Part shown: positions 11,878 through 28,085 of the stretch, piece after piece | Layout: every line of letters begins with the position of its first letter | Position numbering within the stretch: position 1 is the first letter of the stretch | From: a virus | Lineage: Duplodnaviria > Heunggongvirae > Uroviricota > Caudoviricetes | Reading direction: 5' to 3' (one strand) | DNA: 64,000 nucleotides | Virus record (IMG/VR): IMGVR_UViG_3300044623_001231 | Position numbers and translations under genes: made by a program | Notes under the pieces: model-generated | Database searches by the model: none | Seen by the model: the letters and a program-made list of their open reading frames with translations, nothing else | What the model was told of the DNA's origin: nothing

Positions 11878-12222
11878 TTAAATACCTTGCTCTCTGCGTA
11901 AATCATACTCTTCCTTTTCAGCTTCCGAATACTCAACAACCTTTAAGTAAGGTTGAAAATCAGTTTCGTAATAACCTCGAAATCCAGCGAAGAATAACAT
12001 CTCATCGATGAACAATTTTCGAACGTAAGTCATATCGGATGAACCAAATCCCTGGTCTTCCGGCCAATCGGAATATTCATTGGCAACTATCTCCAATGAA
12101 TTAAAAACAGCATCAGCATAAGTGAATCCGTTTTTAGAAGGGAATCCTTTTCTGATAACATCGTAACCTTCTACTAATGAAGAGGTTTCGTGAACAAAAG
12201 CTAAATTAAATGGTAAACTCAT
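11878..12222 (-). CDS. hypothetical protein
   Basis: ORF track; cassette upstream. Confidence 0.5.
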   Translation of the reverse strand: MSLPFNLAFVHETSSLVEGYDVIRKGFPSKNGFTYADAVFNSLEIVANEYSDWPEDQGFGSSDMTYVRKLFIDEMLFFAGFRGYYETDFQPYLKVVEYSEAEKEEYDLRREQGI

Positions 12223-12335
12223 ATTTTTAGGGTTTTAAGGTTTTAAGTATCTCTCAATCTTTATACTCAAATATAGGAAATTAATTTGGATTGCACAAGC
12301 CTTTTGCCAATTATTTTCAAAAAAAGTTATTAACA
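12223..12335 (-). promoter_or_regulatory. full promoter-leader cassette
   Basis: includes the upstream element CAAGCCTTTTGCCAATTATTTTCAAAAAAAGTTATTAACA. Confidence 0.6.
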
Positions 12336-12350
12336 TTTTGGCATAAAAAA

Positions 12351-12375
12351 TAACTCATTGAAAATCAATGAGTTA
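12351..12375 (-). terminator. AT-rich hairpin (TAACTCATTG / CAATGAGTTA) plus a T-run on the minus strand
   Basis: perfect 10-bp inverted repeat. Confidence 0.55.
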
Positions 12376-12395
12376 TAAATTACTTATAATTTGTC

Positions 12396-12542
12396 TTACT
12401 TAGATTTTGATTTAGTTTGGTCCTCAATTACCAAAGAATCATACTCTTGTTGGAGTTTCTGAATCTCAGCTTTGTTAGCCTTTTTATCCTTGCTTAACTT
12501 TAATTTTAGTATTTTTTCAGTAATTTCTTGATTGCGTTCCAT
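12396..12542 (-). CDS. small basic protein (48 aa)
   Basis: read from the DNA: MERNQEITEKILKLKLSKDKKANKAEIQKLQQEYDSLVIEDQTKSKSK. Confidence 0.4.
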   Translation of the reverse strand: MERNQEITEKILKLKLSKDKKANKAEIQKLQQEYDSLVIEDQTKSKSK

Positions 12543-12546
12543 AGGT

Positions 12547-13125
12547 TTAAATATAATTTTCTGGATTAAGTTTCATATCTTCAATAACATCAATATGAGA
12601 TTGTTTATGCATTTCTAAAATATCATGCATCTCATCATATAACTTTTGTCTAGCTTCCTCACCAGCCTCTTCATCATCTCCCCAAAAAACATCAGTATCA
12701 TATTCATCGATATCTACAAATTCAGTATCATCATATTCCTCTGATGTGTAATATACTCCAGCAAAGTTATAACCTTCATCTTCAAATGTGTTGTGAACAA
12801 TTACATCTGATTTAATTTTTCTTAGATTATCTGCAAATCTTTCAATCCAACCATTAATCGGGTCCCATGCTGATGTAACTCTAACAACGGGTTCGTCTGG
12901 TGAATCATCTTCAATAGAACCATATAACCATTTAGCACCAGTATTATCACAATACCAATTCCTATCATATTCCAATGGTGTATCATCTCCAAATACTCTT
13001 TTAGTAAGTGCTTCGGTTTGAACATCCCACTCACCATCTTCGGTTTGAAATACTCTTTTAATTTCTGCAAGAACATCTTCGTTTGAGTTCTGAATAACAA
13101 TGTAATTTTCTATATTATTTGCCAT
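12547..13125 (-). CDS. highly acidic protein (DNA-mimic / anti-restriction candidate)
   Basis: 192 aa with long D/E-rich stretches. Confidence 0.5.
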   Translation of the reverse strand: MANNIENYIVIQNSNEDVLAEIKRVFQTEDGEWDVQTEALTKRVFGDDTPLEYDRNWYCDNTGAKWLYGSIEDDSPDEPVVRVTSAWDPINGWIERFADNLRKIKSDVIVHNTFEDEGYNFAGVYYTSEEYDDTEFVDIDEYDTDVFWGDDEEAGEEARQKLYDEMHDILEMHKQSHIDVIEDMKLNPENYI

Positions 13126-13131
13126 AACTTA

Positions 13132-13701
13132 TTATTTATTTAAAAATCCTATTACTTTTTCTTTAATCCCACTTTGTTTGATACCTTCATTACTTCTAGC
13201 AGTTAGTACAAAGTTATCAAGTCCATGTCCTTGATTGTATTCCGGACTCATATTAAGGTCATCTATTGCAACCCATGTTTCAATTTCAGAATTTAATTCC
13301 AAATACTTTTCAATCTCCAATATTCTTTTTTTACTATACCAACCCTTCCAACTGAAAAGTGCATCGGATTCTGAATCCCAATCACCTAAATTTGGTGTGA
13401 ATGCTAACGGTCTTTTACTAATACCTTGCTCAATATAGTAATCACCCAACTCTTCTAATGTAGCATGTAATTTCCAATCCGAACTAACAATTATTTCAGC
13501 ACCAGTTTCCTCAAGTACTTCATTCAATACCTTAATAGCTTTTTCATCGAAATTATCCAACCTTACATTCACCGGGGCTTCTTTTTGAATTAAAGATGAG
13601 TTTGGATTATCCGAACGATACTTACTCCATTTCTTACTTCTACCTCCCCAATTGTTAGAGAGGCAAATTACACCATCATTATCTAAAAATATAACTTTCA
13701 T
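13132..13701 (-). CDS. HAD-superfamily phosphatase (polynucleotide 3'-phosphatase or GmhB-like)
   Basis: motif I MKVIFLDNDGVI; late AIDDL motif. Confidence 0.55.
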   Translation of the reverse strand: MKVIFLDNDGVICLSNNWGGRSKKWSKYRSDNPNSSLIQKEAPVNVRLDNFDEKAIKVLNEVLEETGAEIIVSSDWKLHATLEELGDYYIEQGISKRPLAFTPNLGDWDSESDALFSWKGWYSKKRILEIEKYLELNSEIETWVAIDDLNMSPEYNQGHGLDNFVLTARSNEGIKQSGIKEKVIGFLNK

Positions 13702-14186
13702 TATTTCATTTTTTTAATACTATCCAACAATTCGGGATATTCCAATAGTAATTTTGGATTATTTTTCAAAGTTTGAATTGTAATATCATTCTTTAACTTA
13801 GTAGTACTCCAACCATGTGCTCTTGATGTGAATATAACTTTAGGTGTTAAGTTATCACCGGTAAATCGTTTACCAATATAATCCTCACCCAATATTCTAA
13901 CATCAGGTTTAAAAAACTCAATTAATTGTATAAGCTCTTCTTCAGTTTGATAAGTATAAACCGCATCAACTGATTCTAATTCCATTAAAGTATTATATCT
14001 TTCAGCACGAGGTACAACGGGTGTATATTTATTAGCCCTATCAATAGATGGGTCATTTTGTAGAAACACCATAAAGTAATCACAATGCTTTTTTGCAGTT
14101 TGAAAGGTGTAAACGTAACCTGGATGAATGATATCGAAGTTACCTGCGGTAAATCCTACTATCTTTTGTTCTCCGTTTATAATCAT
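13701..14186 (-). CDS. HIGH-motif nucleotidyltransferase (RfaE domain II / cytidylyltransferase-like)
   Basis: GFTAGNFDIIHPGYV (GxFDxxHxGH). Confidence 0.6.
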   Translation of the reverse strand: MIINGEQKIVGFTAGNFDIIHPGYVYTFQTAKKHCDYFMVFLQNDPSIDRANKYTPVVPRAERYNTLMELESVDAVYTYQTEEELIQLIEFFKPDVRILGEDYIGKRFTGDNLTPKVIFTSRAHGWSTTKLKNDITIQTLKNNPKLLLEYPELLDSIKKMK

Positions 14187-14187
14187 T

Positions 14188-14337
14188 TTATTCTTTGTTT
14201 ATAATCTCCCACTTAAAAGGAGGTCTATTTCTTTGATACTCACGCATTGACCAATCAATATCATCAGTTTTTAATGTTATTAATTCTGGTTGTGGGTTGT
14301 TATAATCCAACCAAGTGATTTTAATAATGTAATTCAT
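14188..14337 (-). CDS. small protein (49 aa)
   Basis: read from the DNA: MNYIIKITWLDYNNPQPELITLKTDDIDWSMREYQRNRPPFKWEIINKE; stop 1 nt before the next ATG. Confidence 0.4.
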   Translation of the reverse strand: MNYIIKITWLDYNNPQPELITLKTDDIDWSMREYQRNRPPFKWEIINKE

Positions 14338-14482
14338 ACTTTAAAATTTACCCCATTGGGATTTATGTCTATTTTCTTCAGCTATCTTAAAACCCAACCA
14401 AATATCCTTAAAGAATGATTTGATATTATTAATTATTTTGTTCATATTACAAATATACTAATTATTTTTTAATTATCCAAAT

Positions 14483-14827
14483 TTATTTCCAAAATATCTG
14501 TATTCCTATTAATATTGCTGCTAAAATCAATGATATACCTGTTTTTGCATTAATACCCTCATTCATAAATATAAATGTGAGAATAGCAAACGTAATCATC
14601 CCACCAGCTTGCCCTATAAATCTTCCCGGCCATAATTGCCCATCAAAGTGTTCAGCAACCAAAGAAGTTCCTTTAATAAAAATGTAAGATATTAAGGTCC
14701 CACCCATTAGAGATATTAAGAATGGATTACGTTTGAACCAAGGCCAAACGAATTGCCCATTGGTTTGTATCCAAATTATACATTGGGCTATTGTAAATAA
14801 TATAACTCCCCAAATTAGGTTTTTCAT
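14483..14827 (-). CDS. membrane protein (4 TM)
   Basis: ORF track, hydrophobic. Confidence 0.5.
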   Translation of the reverse strand: MKNLIWGVILFTIAQCIIWIQTNGQFVWPWFKRNPFLISLMGGTLISYIFIKGTSLVAEHFDGQLWPGRFIGQAGGMITFAILTFIFMNEGINAKTGISLILAAILIGIQIFWK

Positions 14828-14836
14828 ACAATCATT

Positions 14837-15148
14837 TTATTTATGAGATGAAAACCCTTTTATGGTACGGCCATCTTTTTCCAATTTAGTTTCGATATCT
14901 TCTAATCGTTTATCAAAATCATCCAAAGATGTATTGATATTATTTAGTGCGGAATTTATATCTGTAAATCCTTTATTAACATCATCTACTATTGTATAAT
15001 CATTTTCTTCTAATTCTTCCAATTTTCCACCATTGACTGGTATTTTGGGTTTAGATGTTCTAACAATTAAAATGGTTAACATTACTATTGGTGCAAATAT
15101 TAATAATACTATAAATATTGCTACGATTGTATTGAATATTTCTATCAT
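14837..15148 (-). CDS. membrane-anchored coiled-coil protein
   Basis: ORF track. Confidence 0.5.
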   Translation of the reverse strand: MIEIFNTIVAIFIVLLIFAPIVMLTILIVRTSKPKIPVNGGKLEELEENDYTIVDDVNKGFTDINSALNNINTSLDDFDKRLEDIETKLEKDGRTIKGFSSHK

Positions 15149-15152
15149 GCTT

Positions 15153-15764
15153 TTAAGTTATAAATTCAGTATCTTTCTTTAAGTCAACATAGACTCCTTT
15201 ATAAATACCTTCATTAAATTTATTAATAACCTTTTCAACCAACATTGTTGGAGTACCTGTTATTTGGTACAATCCATCCATTAGTTTAATGACATCTCTA
15301 GTTGAATCTATTGGATTAATTGGTGTAATTGTTTCTACTTCCAGTACACCATCTATATATTTTTGAAATTTTAAATAATTTTTAATTATTAACATATTAT
15401 CACTGTTAATTTCAACAACTACACCCTTTGATAAATCTCTGAATGTGTTCCATAAATACCAATTAACACATTTTAAATCAACTAATATTCTATTCTTAAA
15501 TGCCAATCTATATCCATCATCTAAAATTTCTTTCAATTTAGGTAAATCGGGACTATCAGATACCAAACAAACATCAGCATCCCAAGTTTTAGGATTTGAT
15601 GGGTTGTTTAAATACTCAGCAAATCCACCAGCTAAATAAACTTCATATTCAGATAAATCATGCAGCTCTGATAGTTCTTTGTACCACATAGTTAATGTGT
15701 ACAACTCAGGTCTACCCCACACAAGGGTAGTTGTTAAATTATCAAATCTACAAAAAAAATCCAT
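15153..15764 (-). CDS. hypothetical protein, possible minimal Pol-beta-type nucleotidyltransferase
   Basis: YLAGGFAEYL...WDADV resembles the GG...DxD NTase motif (weak). Confidence 0.4.
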   Translation of the reverse strand: MDFFCRFDNLTTTLVWGRPELYTLTMWYKELSELHDLSEYEVYLAGGFAEYLNNPSNPKTWDADVCLVSDSPDLPKLKEILDDGYRLAFKNRILVDLKCVNWYLWNTFRDLSKGVVVEINSDNMLIIKNYLKFQKYIDGVLEVETITPINPIDSTRDVIKLMDGLYQITGTPTMLVEKVINKFNEGIYKGVYVDLKKDTEFIT

Positions 15765-16258: not shown

Positions 16259-16996
16259 TTATACTTTTTCGTTTGTTGGTTTTAACCACATACCATCTTT
16301 AAATATTAGGTTTAAAAAACCAGGGATGATTTCATCTACATCCATAAGTAATCTAAGACTTTTTGGTGTATCATATTTCATCATCTTCATTAACTCTTCT
16401 CTAATTCTTTCACCACTAACAGTTTGTTCTAATTTCTTTAGGATGTTAGGTTGTTTCATTGCTTCCCAAATATCATCACTCATAACAAAATCCTTTGTGA
16501 TTGTAAATCTTAATGCTCTTAGAATTCTCAAAGGGTCATCCATCATAGTTTGTTTAGCTGGTAATGGAGTTCTTAATAAACCTATTTTTAAATCATCAAT
16601 TCCACCAAATATATCTATAAGGTTTCCATCAATATCCTCAGCCATAGCGTTTAATGTAAAATCTCTTCTAAGTAAATCATCTTCCAATGTTCCCAATTCT
16701 AAGATTGGTCTACGAGTTCCCTCAACATATCCAACTTCCTTTCTTGCCATTACGAAATCAGCAACCATCCCAGAGTATTTATGTTCTTTTGGGAACTTAG
16801 CTCTGATAGTAAAACACTCAGGTGTACTTAGGAATATTTCAAAATCATTTACAGTCATCCAATCTGTCATTATTTGAAATCCACTCTCTACAGTCCAATC
16901 TAAGTTGTCCAAAACAAATGTGAAGTCAATATCTTTTGTATCAACCCCTAACAACCTATCTCTAACACAACCCCCTACTTTGAATATCTTTGGCAT
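16259..16996 (-). CDS. cca: tRNA nucleotidyltransferase (CCA-adding, poly(A)-polymerase head domain), minimal
   Basis: MPKIFKVGGCVRDRLLGVDTKDIDF head-domain signature. Confidence 0.7.
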   Translation of the reverse strand: MPKIFKVGGCVRDRLLGVDTKDIDFTFVLDNLDWTVESGFQIMTDWMTVNDFEIFLSTPECFTIRAKFPKEHKYSGMVADFVMARKEVGYVEGTRRPILELGTLEDDLLRRDFTLNAMAEDIDGNLIDIFGGIDDLKIGLLRTPLPAKQTMMDDPLRILRALRFTITKDFVMSDDIWEAMKQPNILKKLEQTVSGERIREELMKMMKYDTPKSLRLLMDVDEIIPGFLNLIFKDGMWLKPTNEKV

Positions 16997-17096
16997 AACC
17001 TATCTTTTTTATTACATAGTAAATATACAAAATATAATTGATATATCCTAATATTTTAAAAGAAAAAGAGCAACTATTTTAGCTGCTCTTTATCAA

Positions 17097-18242
17097 TTAG
17101 TGAGAATCTCCCACATCATTTTTCTCTCCATAAATAAGGTAGTCAGGGTTTATAACCTTAGCTACTTTATTACGTTCACCTGTATGGTATTTGATTACAA
17201 TTCCTTCATGTGGAACCTTAGTACCTTCAATCATATTTTTAAATACGAATTTATCTTGCACCTCTTGCGACCAATTTCCAAAATGTAATATTTCAACATA
17301 AGGTAATTGTAATATATCTTTAATCATCAATTTAGAATTGATAGGACTTAAATACTCACCATTCTCCTTTACATCGAATCCTACAAACTCCATTTCTGTC
17401 AAACCATAATCATAGTTCTTTTGAATTCCGGCCCCATAGATTTCTCCATAGATTGTGATTCCATCTCCAATTTCTGGTTCCATTGAATTACTTTTAACGT
17501 ATTCCCATAACCTCTTTTTGATTTCATATTTATCCGCAATTTGGTACCAAACATTGGTATCATAGAAACCTTGAGAATCCGAACCCTTTTCTACATTATG
17601 TGAACCAACTACAAATTCATACCCAATCCACTTATCAGCAAACCCAATGAACTTCTTAACCTTATCCCAAAATGATAATTTAAGTTTCTTAACAATACCA
17701 TATCTAGCATTAGTACCATGTATCTTACGAGTAATTTCAACGGTATCTTCTTCAGTAAACATTCCATCCACATTTTTTAGGTTTGGGAATTTATAGTAGA
17801 TGTGGAAGTTTGGATTGTCTTGGTATCTAATCTTTCTACCTCCGGCTAATTGGATTTGTTTAACTGGTGGTTCGTATTTAGTAATTCCTAAGAATTCCAT
17901 ACAATCATCACCTTCGCCTAAATCAAAATCACCCATAGTAACTCTACCACGTAGGTATTTCATTGGGATAATTAAACATTCAGAATAAACACCTCTTAAT
18001 TTTACAGTCCTAACTCTATTACCTTTACGAAGATAGTTAGTTACACCCATCTCTTCAGAAAGTTCTTCAGGTATAACCGCATCAGTTGTAGCAATGATTG
18101 TTTCATCACCAATAGTAAACTCTCCCTTCTTAGTGATTGCATTCCAACCACCAGCAACTACCAATTCGATGTTATCAGCACCCTCAATTGGATTTACTTC
18201 TTTGATTTTTGCTATGTAGCAAACTGAATTTTCGTTTTTCAT
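17097..18242 (-). CDS. RNA ligase, Rnl2 family
   Basis: motif I KIHGTN; GEIYGAGIQKNYDY matches Rnl2 GEFAGPGIQKNVDY. Confidence 0.7.
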   Translation of the reverse strand: MKNENSVCYIAKIKEVNPIEGADNIELVVAGGWNAITKKGEFTIGDETIIATTDAVIPEELSEEMGVTNYLRKGNRVRTVKLRGVYSECLIIPMKYLRGRVTMGDFDLGEGDDCMEFLGITKYEPPVKQIQLAGGRKIRYQDNPNFHIYYKFPNLKNVDGMFTEEDTVEITRKIHGTNARYGIVKKLKLSFWDKVKKFIGFADKWIGYEFVVGSHNVEKGSDSQGFYDTNVWYQIADKYEIKKRLWEYVKSNSMEPEIGDGITIYGEIYGAGIQKNYDYGLTEMEFVGFDVKENGEYLSPINSKLMIKDILQLPYVEILHFGNWSQEVQDKFVFKNMIEGTKVPHEGIVIKYHTGERNKVAKVINPDYLIYGEKNDVGDSH

Positions 18243-18245
18243 TTC

Positions 18246-18659
18246 TTATAATTTTATTTCAAATCTATTTCTCATTCTTTCAACTGCTTCAGTTGGAACA
18301 CCATGTTGGTTTACACCACCATGTCTATTCTCAACTACTAATGAGTAAACCTGATATCCATAGGTTTTTGCTAAGGTAAAATATATATCCATCTCCCATT
18401 TTTGAGTAAAAGTGTTAGATACTACTATTTTTCTATAAAATTGGTCATTAACTAATGAATCCTTCATATAAGTTTCTACTGTATTTCTACAAAACTCATG
18501 TGCATCTTTTAGTTTAGAACCATCGAAGTTATAGTTACCTTCCTTATCATAAAAATACTTATCAGCTTCACATACTAAGAAATCACTTTCTACTATTGAA
18601 TTTGCTAATGTTGATTTACCACTACCTGGCAATCCTCTTAATAAAAATAATTCTTTCAT
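18246..18659 (-). CDS. polynucleotide kinase-like P-loop kinase
   Basis: GLPGSGKSTLA Walker A; 137 aa; adjacent to the RNA ligase. Confidence 0.6.
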   Translation of the reverse strand: MKELFLLRGLPGSGKSTLANSIVESDFLVCEADKYFYDKEGNYNFDGSKLKDAHEFCRNTVETYMKDSLVNDQFYRKIVVSNTFTQKWEMDIYFTLAKTYGYQVYSLVVENRHGGVNQHGVPTEAVERMRNRFEIKL

Positions 18660-18662
18660 AAC

Positions 18663-19325
18663 TTACTTTTTATAGTTTTCTACAATTGTATGATGGTCTT
18701 TATCTAAAAATCCATCAATAGGTTGTTTATCTAATATTCTAACAATATCACTCATACTAATTGGTGATAAGTTGTTACCATCTACACCAACATCCATAAC
18801 TTTACCTCTACCAACTCTTCGGTTAGGTGGTAAGTGAACGTGTCCATGTAAGTGAGGAACTCCCTTACCTAAACCATCCCAACTTGCTATTGGGTAGTGC
18901 ATACACACAAAATGAGTTCCATCATGTTTACCACTACCATCGGGCCATTTGATACTCAAATCTAAATATTGATGAACTGAACTGAATATCTCAGCGATAC
19001 CATCTCTATTGTTAGCTATGTGGTGGTCGTGGTTACCTAATACTAAGTGAATGTTTTGACAAACAATTCGGTTTCTAAATTCAGCGATTGAATCAAATCC
19101 ACCAAAAGACCAGTCACCTAAGTGAATTAAGATATCATCTTGTCCAACTACTGCATTGATATTATTAACTAATACGGCATTCATTTGGTTCAATGTATCG
19201 AAATCTCTGAAATGGTTTGCACCAGCTCTATCCCATTGTGTTGTTCCTTTACAAATGTTAGCATGGTTATAGTGGGTATCACTTGTGAACCATACTTTTT
19301 GTCCTTTATTTAGTAATATCTTCAT
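18663..19325 (-). CDS. calcineurin-like metallophosphoesterase (2',3'-cyclic phosphodiesterase / 3'-phosphatase candidate)
   Basis: GDWSFGG and LGNHDHH motifs. Confidence 0.65.
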   Translation of the reverse strand: MKILLNKGQKVWFTSDTHYNHANICKGTTQWDRAGANHFRDFDTLNQMNAVLVNNINAVVGQDDILIHLGDWSFGGFDSIAEFRNRIVCQNIHLVLGNHDHHIANNRDGIAEIFSSVHQYLDLSIKWPDGSGKHDGTHFVCMHYPIASWDGLGKGVPHLHGHVHLPPNRRVGRGKVMDVGVDGNNLSPISMSDIVRILDKQPIDGFLDKDHHTIVENYKK

Positions 19326-22836: not shown

Positions 22837-23791
22837 TTATATACGATGAGAATACTCGTTTTAATGAACCAGCTTTATAAGGGTTATTGGTTGCCTTAAT
22901 TTCCACTTCCTTTTGAGAAGTACCAATTCAATGTGGGTAAGTAATGTCCTACCACTCATAAAGTTACAAACTACTCTCTTTGTAGTCCACCTCTTCGAAT
23001 CTGCCGACCCGATTAACACCTCGCGATGCTAGAAGTTTTTCGAAAGAATCACATTTCCCTTGAGAGGATTTGTGGCAGGGAACAGCTCCCTACTATGTAC
23101 ACACCTTTCGTCTGCAACTGGTAACCTCTTTCTCTAGTTTGTTTTTTGATTTTGCGTCAATAGGCAAATTGAGTTTTGGTTTGTAGATAAATTCAAGTAG
23201 TGGATTACCACTAGCTCCGCCCCATTTTGAAGAACGGAATACTATACTACTCGATACGTTATCTCTAACGTCATACTTTAAGATTACTTCAGTACCCACT
23301 CTTTGGTGAGAGGTAGGTAAGGATGATAACAACACCACTTGTACTTCATCATACCTTTCGGTTTTAAGTAACCTTTAATATTGAATCACGCAATGATAAG
23401 GAGAGATTAAGTCCTCACTTCTTGCATTAATTCTATGGGTTATTTTTATTGGTGTTCCCACCTCAACTGAAGTATCTACAATACCCCAGTCATCATTCCA
23501 TTTCGCTACGGAGTTACCCTCACTACATTCAGGAACAATGATATCCCACTTGCCTACTCAAGCTCCATCCGAAGATGAAACCGCAAACCCCTCTAAACCA
23601 AAGAGATTCACTTTATCCTACTTTCGTAGTTTATTTAACGACCATAGGCGGCCGTTATACACTATGTAGAACAAGTCTACTATGTGCAATATTTTCAATA
23701 CTTTCAAAGAACTAATTTTCTTTTTCAAAGATACGAATAATTTTTCAATTATCCTAATCTTTTTTTAATTATTTTTCAATAATTTATTTAG

Positions 23792-23966: not shown

Positions 23967-24040
23967 GGACCAGAATGGATTCGAACCATTGACCTACGCA
24001 TTATGAGTGCGGTGCTCTAACCAACTGAGCTACAAGTCCA
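23967..24040 (-). tRNA. tRNA-Met(CAT), elongator-like (or Ile2)
   Basis: GTAGCTCAGTTGGTTAGAGCAC ... CTCATAA; resembles elongator Met. Confidence 0.7.
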
Positions 24041-24174
24041 AAACGAGAGAGGGTTCGGGTCTTTCAAGGTTTCTGATTAAGTGCAATGAGTGACGTCTTT
24101 CTACTATAAACCTTTTTTCGAAAATTAATACACTCTACCTCTTAATTACAGCTTCACTCCCTCTCTATTTTTTA

Positions 24175-24360: not shown

Positions 24361-24418
24361 AACTTTTGTTTTAATTGTTTTAAATTGATAAATAAACATA
24401 GGAACCTACCTATATTTG

Positions 24419-24513
24419 TAATCATAATTGGATTCGAACCAATTCCAGCTTTACAATAAAGAACCTTTCGATTCAACCTTTGTGAGGTGCCGCCAACCAA
24501 TGGCCTTATGATT
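24419..24513 (-). ncRNA. atypical tRNA-like element (95 nt)
   Basis: perfect 7-8-bp acceptor (AATCATA(A)) and perfect T-arm ATTGG-TTCGAAT-CCAAT, but no canonical anticodon arm could be folded. Confidence 0.45.
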
Positions 24514-24581
24514 ATTTAAATGAACTATACAAATATACGAAATGTTTTTCACAATTCCAAATATTTTTTCATTTATTTTTG

Positions 24582-24655: not shown

Positions 24656-24752
24656 ATTAATCACATCGTACCGGCATTCTGGTTCTCGCTAACAGAAATT
24701 CCATCTCATTTAACCCAGTCTGTGCGATGTGGGTACCGGAGGATGTGATTTG

Positions 24753-24831
24753 TAGTCAGAGCCGGATTCGAACCGGATAAGCAACCACTTTATTGGATTC
24801 GGGAACCGTCCCTCATTACGCCCATCTGACC
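24753..24831 (-). ncRNA. atypical tRNA-like element (79 nt) with an extra GGGACGGTTCCC hairpin
   Basis: acceptor GGTCAGA/TCTGACT and T-loop TTCGAAT present; D/anticodon region non-canonical. Confidence 0.4.
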
Positions 24832-24906
24832 ATTTTAAACATCCAGTCTGACCTTCCAGACAGTACAAGTCGGTATTAATTTCACGTGCCGTTTTGTAGT
24901 GAATGT

Positions 24907-25149: not shown

Positions 25150-25163
25150 ACTTTTTGTTTTAG

Positions 25164-25237
25164 TGAACCCATCAGGAATCGAACCTGAAACCTACACATT
25201 AGAAGTGTGTTGCTCTATCCAATTGAGCTATGGGTCC
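25164..25237 (-). tRNA. tRNA-Arg(TCT)
   Basis: anticodon stem ACACA/TGTGT, loop CTTCTAA. Confidence 0.8.
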
Positions 25238-25451
25238 AAATTCACACTCTATTTTATCCAACTACAAGTGTGGTGGTTGTCCCCATAGCGGGCCCATTGG
25301 GCCTTTGATTGGGTTAGGAATAAACCAATTAAACTCTTTCGGAGCAGATGGTTAATCTGGATAGAGCCTTTCCCTATCAGAAGTCCCATATGGCCATCAC
25401 ACCACTTCTCATCATATTGGACATACTATCCGTTGTATGTTACGGAACGTG

Positions 25452-25523
25452 CGGTCTCACCGGGAATCGAACCCGGCATACCGCCGTGACAGGGCGGCGT
25501 TATAGCCGATTAACTATGGGACC
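25452..25523 (-). tRNA. tRNA-Asp(GTC)
   Basis: anticodon stem CCGCC/GGCGG, loop CTGTCAC, G73. Confidence 0.8.
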
Positions 25524-25609
25524 AAAAGTGATAGGTGACCCTCCTATCGTGAAATGATATATCATTTCTTTTCTTTATAGAATCCGAAGATACTGTAGGA
25601 ACATTTTTG

Positions 25610-25682
25610 AGCCTCCGGTCGGGCTCGAACCAACCACCTGCTGATTACAAATCAGCTGCTCTACCAAATGAGCTACGGAGGC
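25610..25682 (-). tRNA. tRNA-Thr(TGT)
   Basis: perfect acceptor GCCTCCG, loop TTTGTAA. Confidence 0.8.
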
Positions 25683-25843
25683 AAAATTAGGAAAGCTACC
25701 TGATATCTTTACAGCCGAATTAGGTACGGATTTCTACATTTAGAATGTTCCTCAAATTCAAACCCCTTTTATGTCCGTACTATGTGGAGGATAAAAAACC
25801 ACATTAGTTGATAAAAAATGAATTCTTCACCTCTTTCCTATTG

Positions 25844-25929
25844 TACCGATGGGCGGACTCGAACCGCCACGAGCATTACTACCCAAGGGATTTTAAGTCC
25901 CTCGTGTCTACCATTTCACCACATCGGCA
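25844..25929 (-). tRNA. tRNA-Leu(TAA), class II
   Basis: anticodon stem AGGGA/TCCCT, loop CTTAAAA, long variable arm. Confidence 0.8.
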
Positions 25930-26045
25930 TTTTAGATTTTCAACATGTCAAAGAACAAAACTGTCTCTCTTTTACTATGTAAAGATACAACATAATTTTG
26001 AATTATACAAGCTTTTTTAAAAACTTTTATAATTTTTGTGGAGGT

Positions 26046-26070
26046 GGCGAGAGTCGAACTCGCGTCCAAA
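26046..26070 (-). other. orphan tRNA 3' half (T-arm GCGAG-TTCGACT-CTCGC plus acceptor CACCTCC-A) with no matching 5' half within 100 nt
   Basis: shares the CACCUCCA 3' end with tRNA-Phe; pseudo-tRNA, split tRNA or recombination scar. Confidence 0.4.
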
Positions 26071-26488
26071 TACGGATTTAATAAACATCATTCACAAGCT
26101 TAGTACATTTTTCTTAATGTACAAAATAGATAAAGATTTATACATTCATTATCATTAATGTTTCCAACTCGATTTCGGGTTCAGTTGGGTTCCACCTGAG
26201 TTCACATTCTATTTTAAGTCCCACGATGTGTGCGGGAGGGATTATGCTGCTACAGCGTAATCGGCACCAACGAAAGACATAGCATCTTCGAAGGTCATTG
26301 TAGATAATTCTACTGCGTTTATTGTTCGATAGGTATTTACGGATTTCCATCTAACCCGGCTTGCAACTTACCAATTCATCGTACCTGTCAAAACCAGGCA
26401 CCCCCATAAATCAAAGAACTTATCTTTTTTGATACTTCAAATATACAAAATCTTTTTGGTATTTCCAAATTTAATTTCAATTATTTTG

Positions 26489-26562
26489 TGACCCCGAATG
26501 GATTCGAACCATTGACTCCCTCATTAAAAGTGAGGTGCTCTAACCAACTGAGCTACGAGGTC
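26489..26562 (-). tRNA. tRNA-Lys(TTT)
   Basis: anticodon stem CCTCA/TGAGG, loop CTTTTAA. Confidence 0.8.
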
Positions 26563-26568
26563 ATTCTG

Positions 26569-26638
26569 AGGTTAAGGTTGGAATCGAACCAACTCCGTAG
26601 ATTTTGCAGACCTACCGGCCTCCAAGACCATCCTAACC
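26569..26638 (-). tRNA. tRNA-Cys(GCA)
   Basis: loop CTGCAAA, short D-loop, 70 nt. Confidence 0.7.
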
Positions 26639-26642
26639 ATTC

Positions 26643-27095
26643 CTATCTACAAGTGTAATCTGCTGCCCTTGTTGCGATTTGCATATCAGGTTTAAGATTA
26701 ACTTCATATCCTAATGAGTTTGCCCAACCCTTTGTAGATTGTACTAACTTAGAAGAGTAATGCTTTTCATTTAAGTTGTAATCTAAATCAATCTGAATAG
26801 TTACACCTAAGTTACTCCTTAACCATTCAGCCACTTCAATAGAATATTCAGTTTCTTTCCACAATCTTGTCCACTTATCTAAAATCTTATCTACTTTTAG
26901 TTTGTGATTAATATAGTGTACACCTGTATTACCATACCTATACGCAATTACAATTGAATATGATGTACAATCTGATAAGTTTTGAGAATCACACCCAATA
27001 TGAATATCCGCATGTGGACATTCTTTTAATATATCAATCGTATGTTGTACGATATCTACCACTTCCCCATTTACTTTTCTAAAAACTTTTACCAT
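26643..27095 (-). CDS. hypothetical protein (possible RNase H-like fold) inside the tRNA array
   Basis: 150-aa ORF flanked by tRNA-Cys and tRNA-Phe. Confidence 0.5.
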   Translation of the reverse strand: MVKVFRKVNGEVVDIVQHTIDILKECPHADIHIGCDSQNLSDCTSYSIVIAYRYGNTGVHYINHKLKVDKILDKWTRLWKETEYSIEVAEWLRSNLGVTIQIDLDYNLNEKHYSSKLVQSTKGWANSLGYEVNLKPDMQIATRAADYTCR

Positions 27096-27643: not shown

Positions 27644-27840
27644 AGCCACACAATTTAAAAGAAGTATAACCAGAATTTTGTGTAAACCTATCATTTGTCT
27701 TTTTGCCCCAACCTTGTCCGAATTGCTCACCTTCATAGACTATTTTGGGTTGCATCCTCAGTAGTAAAACGAATTTCTTCTCCTACTTTAAGCAATGATG
27801 TTCTGAGTTTCCTCTCCGTAGAGCGATAGGAACTTCTTTG

Positions 27841-28007: not shown

Positions 28008-28085
28008 ATAAGTTGCAGGATATCGCTTAACCTGCGGTGTTGATATCATTACACACCTTTGATGTTACCACCAGCGATTTTTTTG

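Follow-up and report, generated by a model that had tools for sequence, protein, structure and literature searches.

The 64,000-nucleotide (nt) window analyzed here, taken from IMG/VR virus record IMGVR_UViG_3300044623_001231, is identical to a stretch of a 270,754-bp metagenomic contig (JGI 3300042460) and belongs to a phage of ~270 kb. All of its long open reading frames (ORFs) lie on the minus strand, its G+C content is ~32%, and ARAGORN finds 25 tRNA genes and one transfer-messenger RNA (tmRNA) gene on that strand between 22456 and 28616. A preliminary description of this tRNA array had singled out three long spacers, block 1 (25238–25450), block 2 (25683–25840) and block 3 (26075–26480). 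ARAGORN places all three as described, on the tRNA-carrying strand, and their length is anomalous because 10 other junctions of the array measure only 3–7 nt each. Along the minus strand, the ARAGORN annotation reads tRNA-Lys (26488–26562), block 3, tRNA-Leu(UAA) (25843–25928), block 2, tRNA-Thr (25609–25682), tRNA-Asp(GUC) (25451–25523), block 1 and tRNA-Arg(UCU) (25163–25237). We estimate a probability of roughly 75% that the spacers hold three non-tRNA RNA genes of a minus-strand phage tRNA operon, whose products would be co-transcribed with the tRNAs, released by tRNA processing, and act in trans as folded RNAs.

Judged by sequence and model fit, block 3 is a tmRNA gene, an ordinary member of its family with a long lineage-specific tag. 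The Rfam tmRNA model RF00023 matches 26036–26405(−) over its full length (model positions 1–374 of 374) with 115.2 bits against a gathering threshold of 47 (E = 3.3e-45), and ARAGORN makes the same call; block 3 as originally drawn omits the last 39 nt of the gene (26036–26074) and takes in its promoter. The 5′ strand of the acceptor stem, GGGGGUG (26399–26405), pairs with the 3′ strand CACCUCC and includes a tRNA-Ala-like G3-U pair, the T arm reads GCGAG-UUCGACU-CUCGC, and a pseudoknot precedes the resume codon. Both the acceptor and T stems show compensatory changes relative to relatives L003, L005 and L034 (L-numbers are our labels for the contigs or loci compared). The tag frame at 26242–26316(−), on which ARAGORN and direct translation agree, comprises 24 codons and a stop and translates to AVELSTMTFEDAMSFVGADYAVAA; it has a non-AUG start and a hydrophobic, A-rich C-terminus. 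tmRNAs in the same place in relatives encode the tags GEEKSSFTFEDAMAFVGAEYAVAA, GREISNFTFEDAMAFVGAEYALAA or GREISNFTFEDAMAFVGAEYAVAA, and the C-terminal two-thirds of the tag is conserved in five relatives, with the block TFEDAM(S/A)FVGA(D/E)YA(V/L)AA. The acceptor stem, T arm, pseudoknot and tag ending in YAVAA and a stop are those of ssrA RNAs in general, whereas the length of the tag, its phage-lineage-specific block and the ACAA at the 3′ end of the window RNA set it apart. Once charged with alanine, this tmRNA would be expected to rescue stalled ribosomes and add its conserved 24-residue tag. tmRNAs have already been reported in huge phages (Al-Shayeb et al. 2020, PMC7162821).

The preliminary description had seen an orphan tRNA 3′ half beside block 3 and suggested that an intron or insertion had split a tRNA. 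A T arm and acceptor 3′ strand do stand at 26038–26075 without an adjacent 5′ half, but its 5′ partner in the acceptor stem is found 360 nt upstream, at 26399–26405, the whole interval fits the tmRNA model end to end, and it holds a conserved tag frame. The orphan half is therefore real but belongs to an intact tmRNA, and the split-tRNA explanation is next to impossible.

The window tmRNA ends in ...CUCCACAA (ACAA, 26036–26039(−)) and those of all relatives in ...CUCCACCA (ACCA). Since the 3′ CCA is incompletely encoded in the window, its tmRNA would need the phage-encoded CCA-adding enzyme (PF01743) nearby. That enzyme is one of several genes for RNA repair or tRNA maturation at 16259–19325(−), adjoining the array, the others being an RNA ligase (PF09414 plus an OB domain), an AAA_33 kinase-like protein and a Metallophos phosphoesterase. 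The remainder of block 3 (26406–26487) contains a promoter-like site at 26438–26469(−) (TTTG, 20 nt, TATATTTG) that ends 32 nt upstream of the tmRNA 5′ end. The pattern TTTG-N17-23-TANNTTTG has 15 matches against 4.8 expected. Eight minus-strand sites (14450, 20913, 24530, 26438, 29933, 39299, 45748 and 60181) combine TTTGG, ~19 nt and GTATATTTG, a consensus that probably represents a strong phage promoter of the Bacteroidota −33/−7 type. Promoters of this type, together with type IX secretion system (T9SS) sorting domains in relatives (L009), point to a Bacteroidota host. Downstream of the tmRNA, the spacer that separates it from tRNA-Leu(UAA) (25929–26035(−)) is conserved, its identity being 87–88% with L034 and L035 (over 99 nt) and 73% with L003, and may hold a second, weaker promoter; it has no significant fold (z = −1.0).

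By model matches and covariation, block 1 is a member of a new conserved family of structured RNAs, which we call family A. Its relatives were first reached through the RNaseH-like YkuK gene inside the array at 26643–27095(−) (DUF458, PF04308; E = 2e-17). An IMG/VR search with this protein found no close relatives, and those compared here came from a protein database and contig look-ups. BLAST aligned block 1 with a spacer in L009/L010 at 83.5% identity over 79 nt (E = 1e-17), although the YkuK proteins of L009/L010 are only 61% identical to that of the window. Exact-pattern scans from the family A core yielded 17 IMG/VR and 43 metagenome stretches, six of which are chance matches in coding DNA. 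In all, the family comprises 37 distinct core sequences from viral and metagenomic contigs, scattered among freshwater and marine viral contigs. The window copy is a long form that fills block 1 (213 nt, 25238–25450(−)), and family A model R1 matches it at 25331–25451 with 107.4 bits (E = 3e-28).

Family A RNAs are pseudoknotted and 155–240 nt long, with six to seven helices. They begin with a 5′ hairpin, P1, followed by helix Pa, inside which an invariant strand of 12 nt and hairpin Pb are found, and then by Pc, P3 and an optional P4. In the 37-sequence alignment, 97.2% of pair cells are paired, compared with 30–42% when the partners are slid, and 19 of the 40 pairs are compensated (104 cells), a result reached by none of 500 shuffles. 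Most columns of the core at 25360–25428(−) (UAGUAUGUCCAAUAUGAUGAGAAGU, hairpin Pb and AUGGGACUUCUGAUAGGGAAAGGCUCUAUC) are invariant across these sequences, and covariation is seen in Pa, Pb and Pc; the covariance model also detected a second copy in L026, a divergent one with compensated changes in the otherwise invariant Pc. The loop of hairpin P3 (25345–25359(−)), AACC at 25350–25353, pairs with GGUU at 25323–25326 to form a pseudoknot. The consensus here is GACU/AGUC, six sequences have AACU/AGUU, and the AACC/GGUU of the window represents two compensated pairs. A kissing interaction between the loops of P1 (AUCA) and Pb (UGAU) is conceivable, with 95.9% of cells paired and one compensated case, a level that 37 of 500 shuffles also reach.

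The long forms (those of the window, L026, L053, L022, L070, L011 and L018) have in common a 3′ domain with two further helices, P5 and P6. The base of the variable helix P5 (25282–25313(−)) covaries, with CCCA/UGGG, CCCG/CGGG, CCUA/UAGG and CUUUAC/GUAAAG among its pairings, and its tip, GGCCC-AAU-GGGCC at 25291–25303, is a hairpin that the preliminary description had noticed and placed slightly off, at ~25285. The terminal hairpin P6 (25244–25271(−)) has ACACU/AGUGU in the window and L022 and ACACC/GGUGU in the other members. All helices of the window copy are complementary; like L026 and L053, it has no optional P4. At two positions of the family G-U outnumbers every other pair, and on the opposite strand it would become an A-C mismatch, so family A is read on the tRNA strand.

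We found no counterpart of family A among known RNAs. None of the 4227 models of Rfam 15 matches it at E ≤ 1, and those that do at E ≤ 10 give only chance-level scores of 7.5–19.9 bits. There is no match in 50,697 GenBank phage records, and the four exact-pattern matches in GTDB, with one genome per species, are all chance matches, none of which passes the model. BLAST of the whole array against GenBank phages gave only tRNA-level matches and one match to the region of a GOLLD RNA. The family is thus new relative to Rfam 15, GenBank phages and GTDB; a catalogue of 8,495 candidate viral RNAs (PMC10690425) lay outside this comparison.

Block 2 is likewise, on covariance-model and covariation evidence, a member of a second new conserved family of structured RNAs, family B. 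Initial BLAST and nhmmer searches with block 2 found nothing, and homology emerged only through direct comparison of syntenic spacers and through covariance models. Related arrays have a spacer of 140–176 nt directly after tRNA-Leu(UAA), with short motifs and a layout in common with block 2. With only the window sequence and its proposed structure as input, a model recovered L035 (E = 3.7e-7) and L034 (E = 3e-4), both at the syntenic site. Adding these two to the seed gave a model that detected L092 (E = 1.2e-6) as well as L004 and L003 (E = 0.011); the 577 kb searched contained no further match at E ≤ 1, and the model later matched L146 (115 bits) and L147 (88 bits). The family therefore stands at eight distinct sequences, the window as seed and seven others with E values from 4.6e-23 to 0.011, all at the same syntenic site with tRNA-Leu(UAA) directly upstream.

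The family B RNA of the window (160 nt, 25683–25842(−)) is closed by a terminal stem, P1, and the family is defined by this stem, hairpins P2 and P3, a long-range helix P4 and the motifs GAGGAACA (replaced by GGGGGACA in L003 and L004), CGGCU and CAGGUAG, as captured in models R2 and R3. In the alignment, 95.1% of pair cells are paired (39–56% after sliding of the partners) and compensation affects 12 of the 28 pairs; none of 500 shuffles attains this. P1 consists of 8 bp between 25833–25840 (5′ strand) and 25688–25695 (3′ strand), with six of eight pairs compensated. P4 joins GUACGGA (25774–25780) to UCCGUAC (25724–25730), with four of seven pairs compensated; the corresponding strands are GUAUGAUG/CAUCAUAC in L092, GUAUGAGU/ACUCAUAC in L034 and UACAGGUC/GACCUGUA in L004. 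This is the long-range stem enclosing 43 nt that the preliminary description had reported near 25700; the stem is there, slightly away from the quoted site, and as P4 it covaries. The loop of hairpin P3 (25782–25804(−)), at 25788–25792, can pair with 25762–25766 to form a pseudoknot, and the letters involved change in concert (AUCCU/GGGGU, UAUCC/GGAUG, ACCCC/GGGGU, AUCCCA/UGGGAU and UUAUCU/AGAUAA, with UACCC/GGGUA in L147 by eye). In all five sequences compared in this way, P1, P3, P4 and the contact of the P3 loop with the interior keep full complementarity, and their letters differ. An architecture shuffle test for family B discriminated poorly, mis-scoring two real sequences, and is not used as evidence.

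As for family A, none of the Rfam 15 models matches block 2 at E ≤ 1, and the three that do so at E ≤ 10 score 10.7–16.2 bits against gathering thresholds of 48–51. Two degenerate family B patterns retrieved only chance or coding matches from IMG/VR, none of which passes model R3. The Rfam scan proposed in the preliminary description thus identified block 3 and left blocks 1 and 2 without a known family. Several specific candidates were also rejected for these two blocks. Neither is a tRNA or an intron-containing tRNA, as ARAGORN makes no call even under relaxed settings with introns allowed and RF00005 does not match. RNase P RNA, signal recognition particle (SRP) RNA, 6S RNA, the pistol, hatchet and hepatitis delta virus (HDV)-like ribozymes, anticodon-loop mimicry and micro-ORFs were discarded because no model matched or because the topology or frame was inconsistent. 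The only match to YrlA, a Y RNA, overlaps true tRNAs at 26526–26603 (23.8 bits vs 69 bits), and no TROVE domain occurs among the ten longest ORFs of the window.

The evidence for structure comes from comparison and not from the window sequence by itself. A perfect stem as long as the longest in block 1, or longer, occurs in 491 of 500 dinucleotide shuffles, and one matching the longest in block 2 occurs in 135 of 500; the folding z-scores of the two blocks are only −2.25 and −1.33. The sole single-sequence signal is the 8-bp stem that joins the ends of block 2, noticed post hoc and found in 2 of 500 shuffles. Taken singly, the stems named in the preliminary description are therefore within chance expectation. 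On these weak statistics, and because the presence of the blocks varies between close relatives, both might be viewed as nonfunctional, fast-evolving spacer with chance hairpins. This is highly improbable. The family A core has a mean column identity of 86%, compared with only ~60% for the neighboring RNaseH-like proteins, the counts of compensated pairs in both families exceed those of every shuffle, and the models match at syntenic sites only. The preliminary description had allowed that the spacers might prove to be variable junk in related genomes; presence does vary, but the elements are not junk, because sequence and structure are conserved wherever they occur. Its proposal of small RNAs or processing elements is borne out for blocks 1 and 2, both of which belong to conserved families with compensatory changes in most helices.

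It is similarly improbable that the blocks act as DNA, for example as target sites for recombination or endonucleases, or that they encode micro-proteins. The blocks do behave like cassettes, homing-endonuclease-like genes lie near some arrays (GIY-YIG and HNH in L009 and L092), and, although the spacers had been described as free of ORFs and contain only short ones, a 46-codon ORF overlaps block 1. However, it is only when read on the tRNA-sense strand that family B, like family A, has frequent G-U pairs, and substitutions are compensatory in stems and not synonymous. Moreover, hairpin Pb differs by 1 nt in length among family A members, which puts them out of frame with one another, so the ORFs are not conserved, and large insertions likewise break reading frames between members.

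Other contigs of the same phage are 99.96–100% identical to the window over the region compared and so give no information on variation within the population. Among the window's own relatives, family A occurs only in L009 and L010 and is absent from L003, L004, L029, L031, L034, L092, L095, L146 and L147, and family B is so far confined to relatives that carry a tmRNA. L029, the closest relative (93% identical YkuK protein), lacks the tmRNA, family A and family B. There, tRNA-Asp and tRNA-Arg are 8 nt apart, tRNA-Gly(UCC) takes the place of family B, and the 77-nt promoter spacer that precedes the tmRNA in the window is retained at 87% identity and leads directly into tRNA-Leu(UAA). The absence of all three elements from L029 indicates cassette-like behavior in a mosaic array.

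Several observations weigh against the view that blocks 1–3 are RNA genes released by tRNA processing and active in trans. As the L029 array shows, this phage group does not depend on any of the three elements. Those nucleotides of family A that are most conserved never vary, so that their pairing cannot be assessed by covariation. Family B rests on only eight sequences from five phage lineages, and its pair counts come from a model-fitted alignment, which favors the structure. When ORFs within 5 kb of 32 family A copies were clustered in search of a protein partner, no cluster was represented in more than eight loci. Finally, ~10 family A copies have no recognizable T arm upstream, and 5′ end formation linked to a tRNA is therefore not universal.

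The borders of the two RNAs suggest how they may be made. The window copy of family A starts one base past the discriminator of tRNA-Asp, and a T-loop pattern places 33 of 43 copies directly 3′ of a tRNA or of a tRNA-like T arm and acceptor strand in the same register. On the 3′ side, most copies stop a few nt short of the following tRNA or tRNA-like gene, and that of L011 stops at a terminator. In family B, 2 nt separate the terminal stem from tRNA-Leu upstream and 5 nt separate it from tRNA-Thr downstream. No promoter-like site lies inside block 1 or 2, and terminator-like matches, none of them inside these blocks, are not above shuffle expectation. Transcription from 26438–26469 would run through the tmRNA, tRNA-Leu, family B, tRNA-Thr, tRNA-Asp, family A and tRNA-Arg, perhaps with an additional contribution from a weaker promoter in the spacer at 25929–26035. 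With borders at tRNA ends, RNase P and a 3′ tRNA-end nuclease of the RNase Z type, in trimming the neighboring tRNAs (for family A, with a putative signal in the flanking tRNA-Asp), would free both RNAs with paired ends as discrete, stable molecules. We tentatively suggest that the released RNAs may bind a protein or RNA in trans during infection and do not serve as antisense regulators; a search of the window found no antisense targets of their conserved single-stranded motifs.

The same borders could mean instead that blocks 1 and 2 act in cis, as trailers or leaders that guide, time or protect tRNA processing, with family B serving, for example, as the 3′ trailer of tRNA-Leu(UAA). All eight family B sequences occur only in that position, and about three-quarters of family A copies abut a tRNA or tRNA-like 3′ end through a fixed junction (discriminator, C, ACG). 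We nonetheless regard a purely cis-acting role as unlikely. Family A follows tRNA-Asp here but follows odd tRNA-like genes, a minihelix or no tRNA elsewhere, most tRNAs of the array are processed with spacers of 3–7 nt and no such element, and L029 has tRNA-Leu(UAA) without family B. In addition, multi-helix pseudoknotted folds with many invariant unpaired bases exceed what a processing signal needs.

A still less probable explanation is that one or both RNAs are self-cleaving ribozymes that excise themselves, and hence the neighboring tRNA, from the precursor. Both have compact pseudoknotted folds with invariant junction nucleotides, the 5′ junction of family A is fixed beside the tRNA 3′ end, and the phage RNA ligase, kinase-like protein, phosphoesterase and CCA-adding enzyme could repair cyclic-phosphate ends. 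However, no Rfam ribozyme family matched even at E ≤ 10, and the topology is unlike that of HDV-like ribozymes, in that the 5′ end of family A is a simple local hairpin. Strings that resemble those of hammerheads (AUGAUGAG and CUGAUAG) vary or differ where hammerheads are invariant. A hammerhead was rejected for family A: in its first motif, AUGAUGA/ACGAUGA, C3 is A and U4 varies, in CUGAUAG the positions G8 and A9 are wrong, and no Rfam hammerhead model matched.

The favored reading, in which the three spacers are RNA genes of the tRNA operon, has its nearest analogue in phage T4. The T4 tRNA cluster encodes two non-tRNA RNAs, species 1 and 2 (rnaC/rnaD), of ~120–140 nt, which are made from the same precursors as the tRNAs and still have no assigned function. 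Families A and B resemble them in their arrangement among phage tRNA genes; unlike them, as far as descriptions allow a comparison, they are larger and pseudoknotted and occur in uncultured phages with Bacteroidota-type signals, and T4 was presumably included in the GenBank phage records that lack family A. RNAs released from tRNA precursors are known in other settings, including the E. coli 3′ETS-leuZ sponge and RtT RNA, plant tRNA-snoRNA (small nucleolar RNA) dicistrons, and MALAT1-mascRNA. By analogy with these, a flanking tRNA or tRNA-like fold may recruit RNase P or RNase Z to form the ends of families A and B; the known examples are short linear sponges or eukaryotic, and processing of families A and B is a proposal. 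GOLLD (RF02032) and ROOL are also phage-associated, highly structured and typically located beside tRNA genes, but they are 400–800 nt long and form multimeric cages (Kretsch et al. 2025, PMC12286853), whereas families A and B measure 140–240 nt and have no sequence or model similarity to them. A likeness of family A to box C/D RNAs proved superficial. The core contains AUGAUGA and CUGA strings, and its only subthreshold Rfam matches are C/D snoRNA models, but these score 7.5–13.5 bits against gathering thresholds of 40–50, and a box C/D kink-turn is incompatible with the covarying helices Pa (32–35/66–69) and Pc (76–82/88–94).

Phage tRNA arrays are usually annotated as tRNAs and empty spacers, yet all the long spacers of the interval considered here appear to be RNA genes. 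Two pseudoknotted RNAs, in each of which numerous unpaired bases are invariant, would join the small group of phage RNAs that cluster with tRNA genes and have no assigned function, namely T4 species 1 and 2, GOLLD and ROOL, and their gain and loss between close relatives suggests that such genes are shuffled as tRNAs are. A bolder and rather doubtful extension is that families A and B found new functional classes of RNA spread as cassettes, either as ribozymes or as decoys or scaffolds acting on the translation or tRNA-targeting defense machinery of the host. With sizes of 160–210 nt and defined borders, the two RNAs are practical targets for studies of expression, processing, structure and binding, and gaps of more than 100 nt in phage tRNA arrays deserve comparative scanning. 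On the bolder view, the array would be a dense island of noncoding RNA that combines 25 tRNAs, a tmRNA, a GOLLD RNA, families A and B, at least one more pseudoknotted family (28008–28084) and atypical tRNA-like genes.

The GOLLD RNA lies at 22843–23254(−), where RF02032 matches over its full length with 257 bits against a gathering threshold of 150. It probably extends to ~23790, as the 535 nt upstream, up to tRNA-Met, are likely its variable 5′ half, and the 642-kb uncultured phage LR756502.1 matches the GOLLD region at 64% identity. The element at 28008–28084(−) is conserved over ~70 nt and lies between tRNA-Ile and tRNA-Tyr. It consists of AAAAAAUCGY, a variable covarying hairpin, AAGGUGUGUAAUGAUAUCAACACC and RCAGGUUAAGCGAURUCCUGY, in which UCGY and RCGA can form a pseudoknot. 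It recurs in L003 (6488–6557, 97% identical), L009 (12580–12633) and L084–L091, is present in eight IMG/VR contigs, and has no Rfam match. Two other spacers are conserved well above the neighboring proteins and, from these identities, are probably further RNA genes: 24040–24174(−), 88% identical to L003 and 83% to L029–L032, and 27655–27839(−), 77–87% identical to L003, L004 and L034–L036, which carry a 43-nt insertion there. The 85-nt spacer between tRNA-Thr and tRNA-Asp (25524–25608(−)) has no assigned family, with no homologue in ~90 loci and no tRNA-like call under relaxed ARAGORN settings. Near the YkuK gene, tRNA-Cys follows immediately in every relative examined and tRNA-Phe lies directly upstream in most, the window included; the closest nonphage homologues of the YkuK protein come from Flavobacteriaceae and other Bacteroidota.

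The array also contains two atypical tRNA-like genes. The first, at 24418–24505(−), is called only under relaxed ARAGORN settings, with a 4-nt anticodon or an intron, and has the promoter consensus just upstream, at 24530–24561. It may be Y-RNA-like, because its nhmmer match in L006–L008 lies directly 3′ of a TROVE (Ro60-like) gene. In these more distant relatives, the interval 12108–15669 includes the TROVE gene and a freshwater-1 RNA (RF02979, 76 bits) near tRNA arrays. The second, at 24752–24840(−) (GGUCAGAUGGGCGUAAUGAGGG...CCGGUUCGAAUCCGGCUCUGACUACA), has homologues in L026 (3152–3241) and L079 (from 11208), which lie directly 3′ of family A copies. Paralogous tRNA-like genes occur in L009 (12715–13290) and at many family A loci (L011, L013, L015, L018, L025, L028 and others), where they usually flank family A. 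In these genes the acceptor stem is AGUCAGG/CCUGACU, the discriminator is A, the D arm is of type II, and the anticodon arm gives way to inserts of widely differing length. They appear to resemble tRNA-Leu in their identity elements, and tRNA-Leu is charged without recognition of the anticodon.

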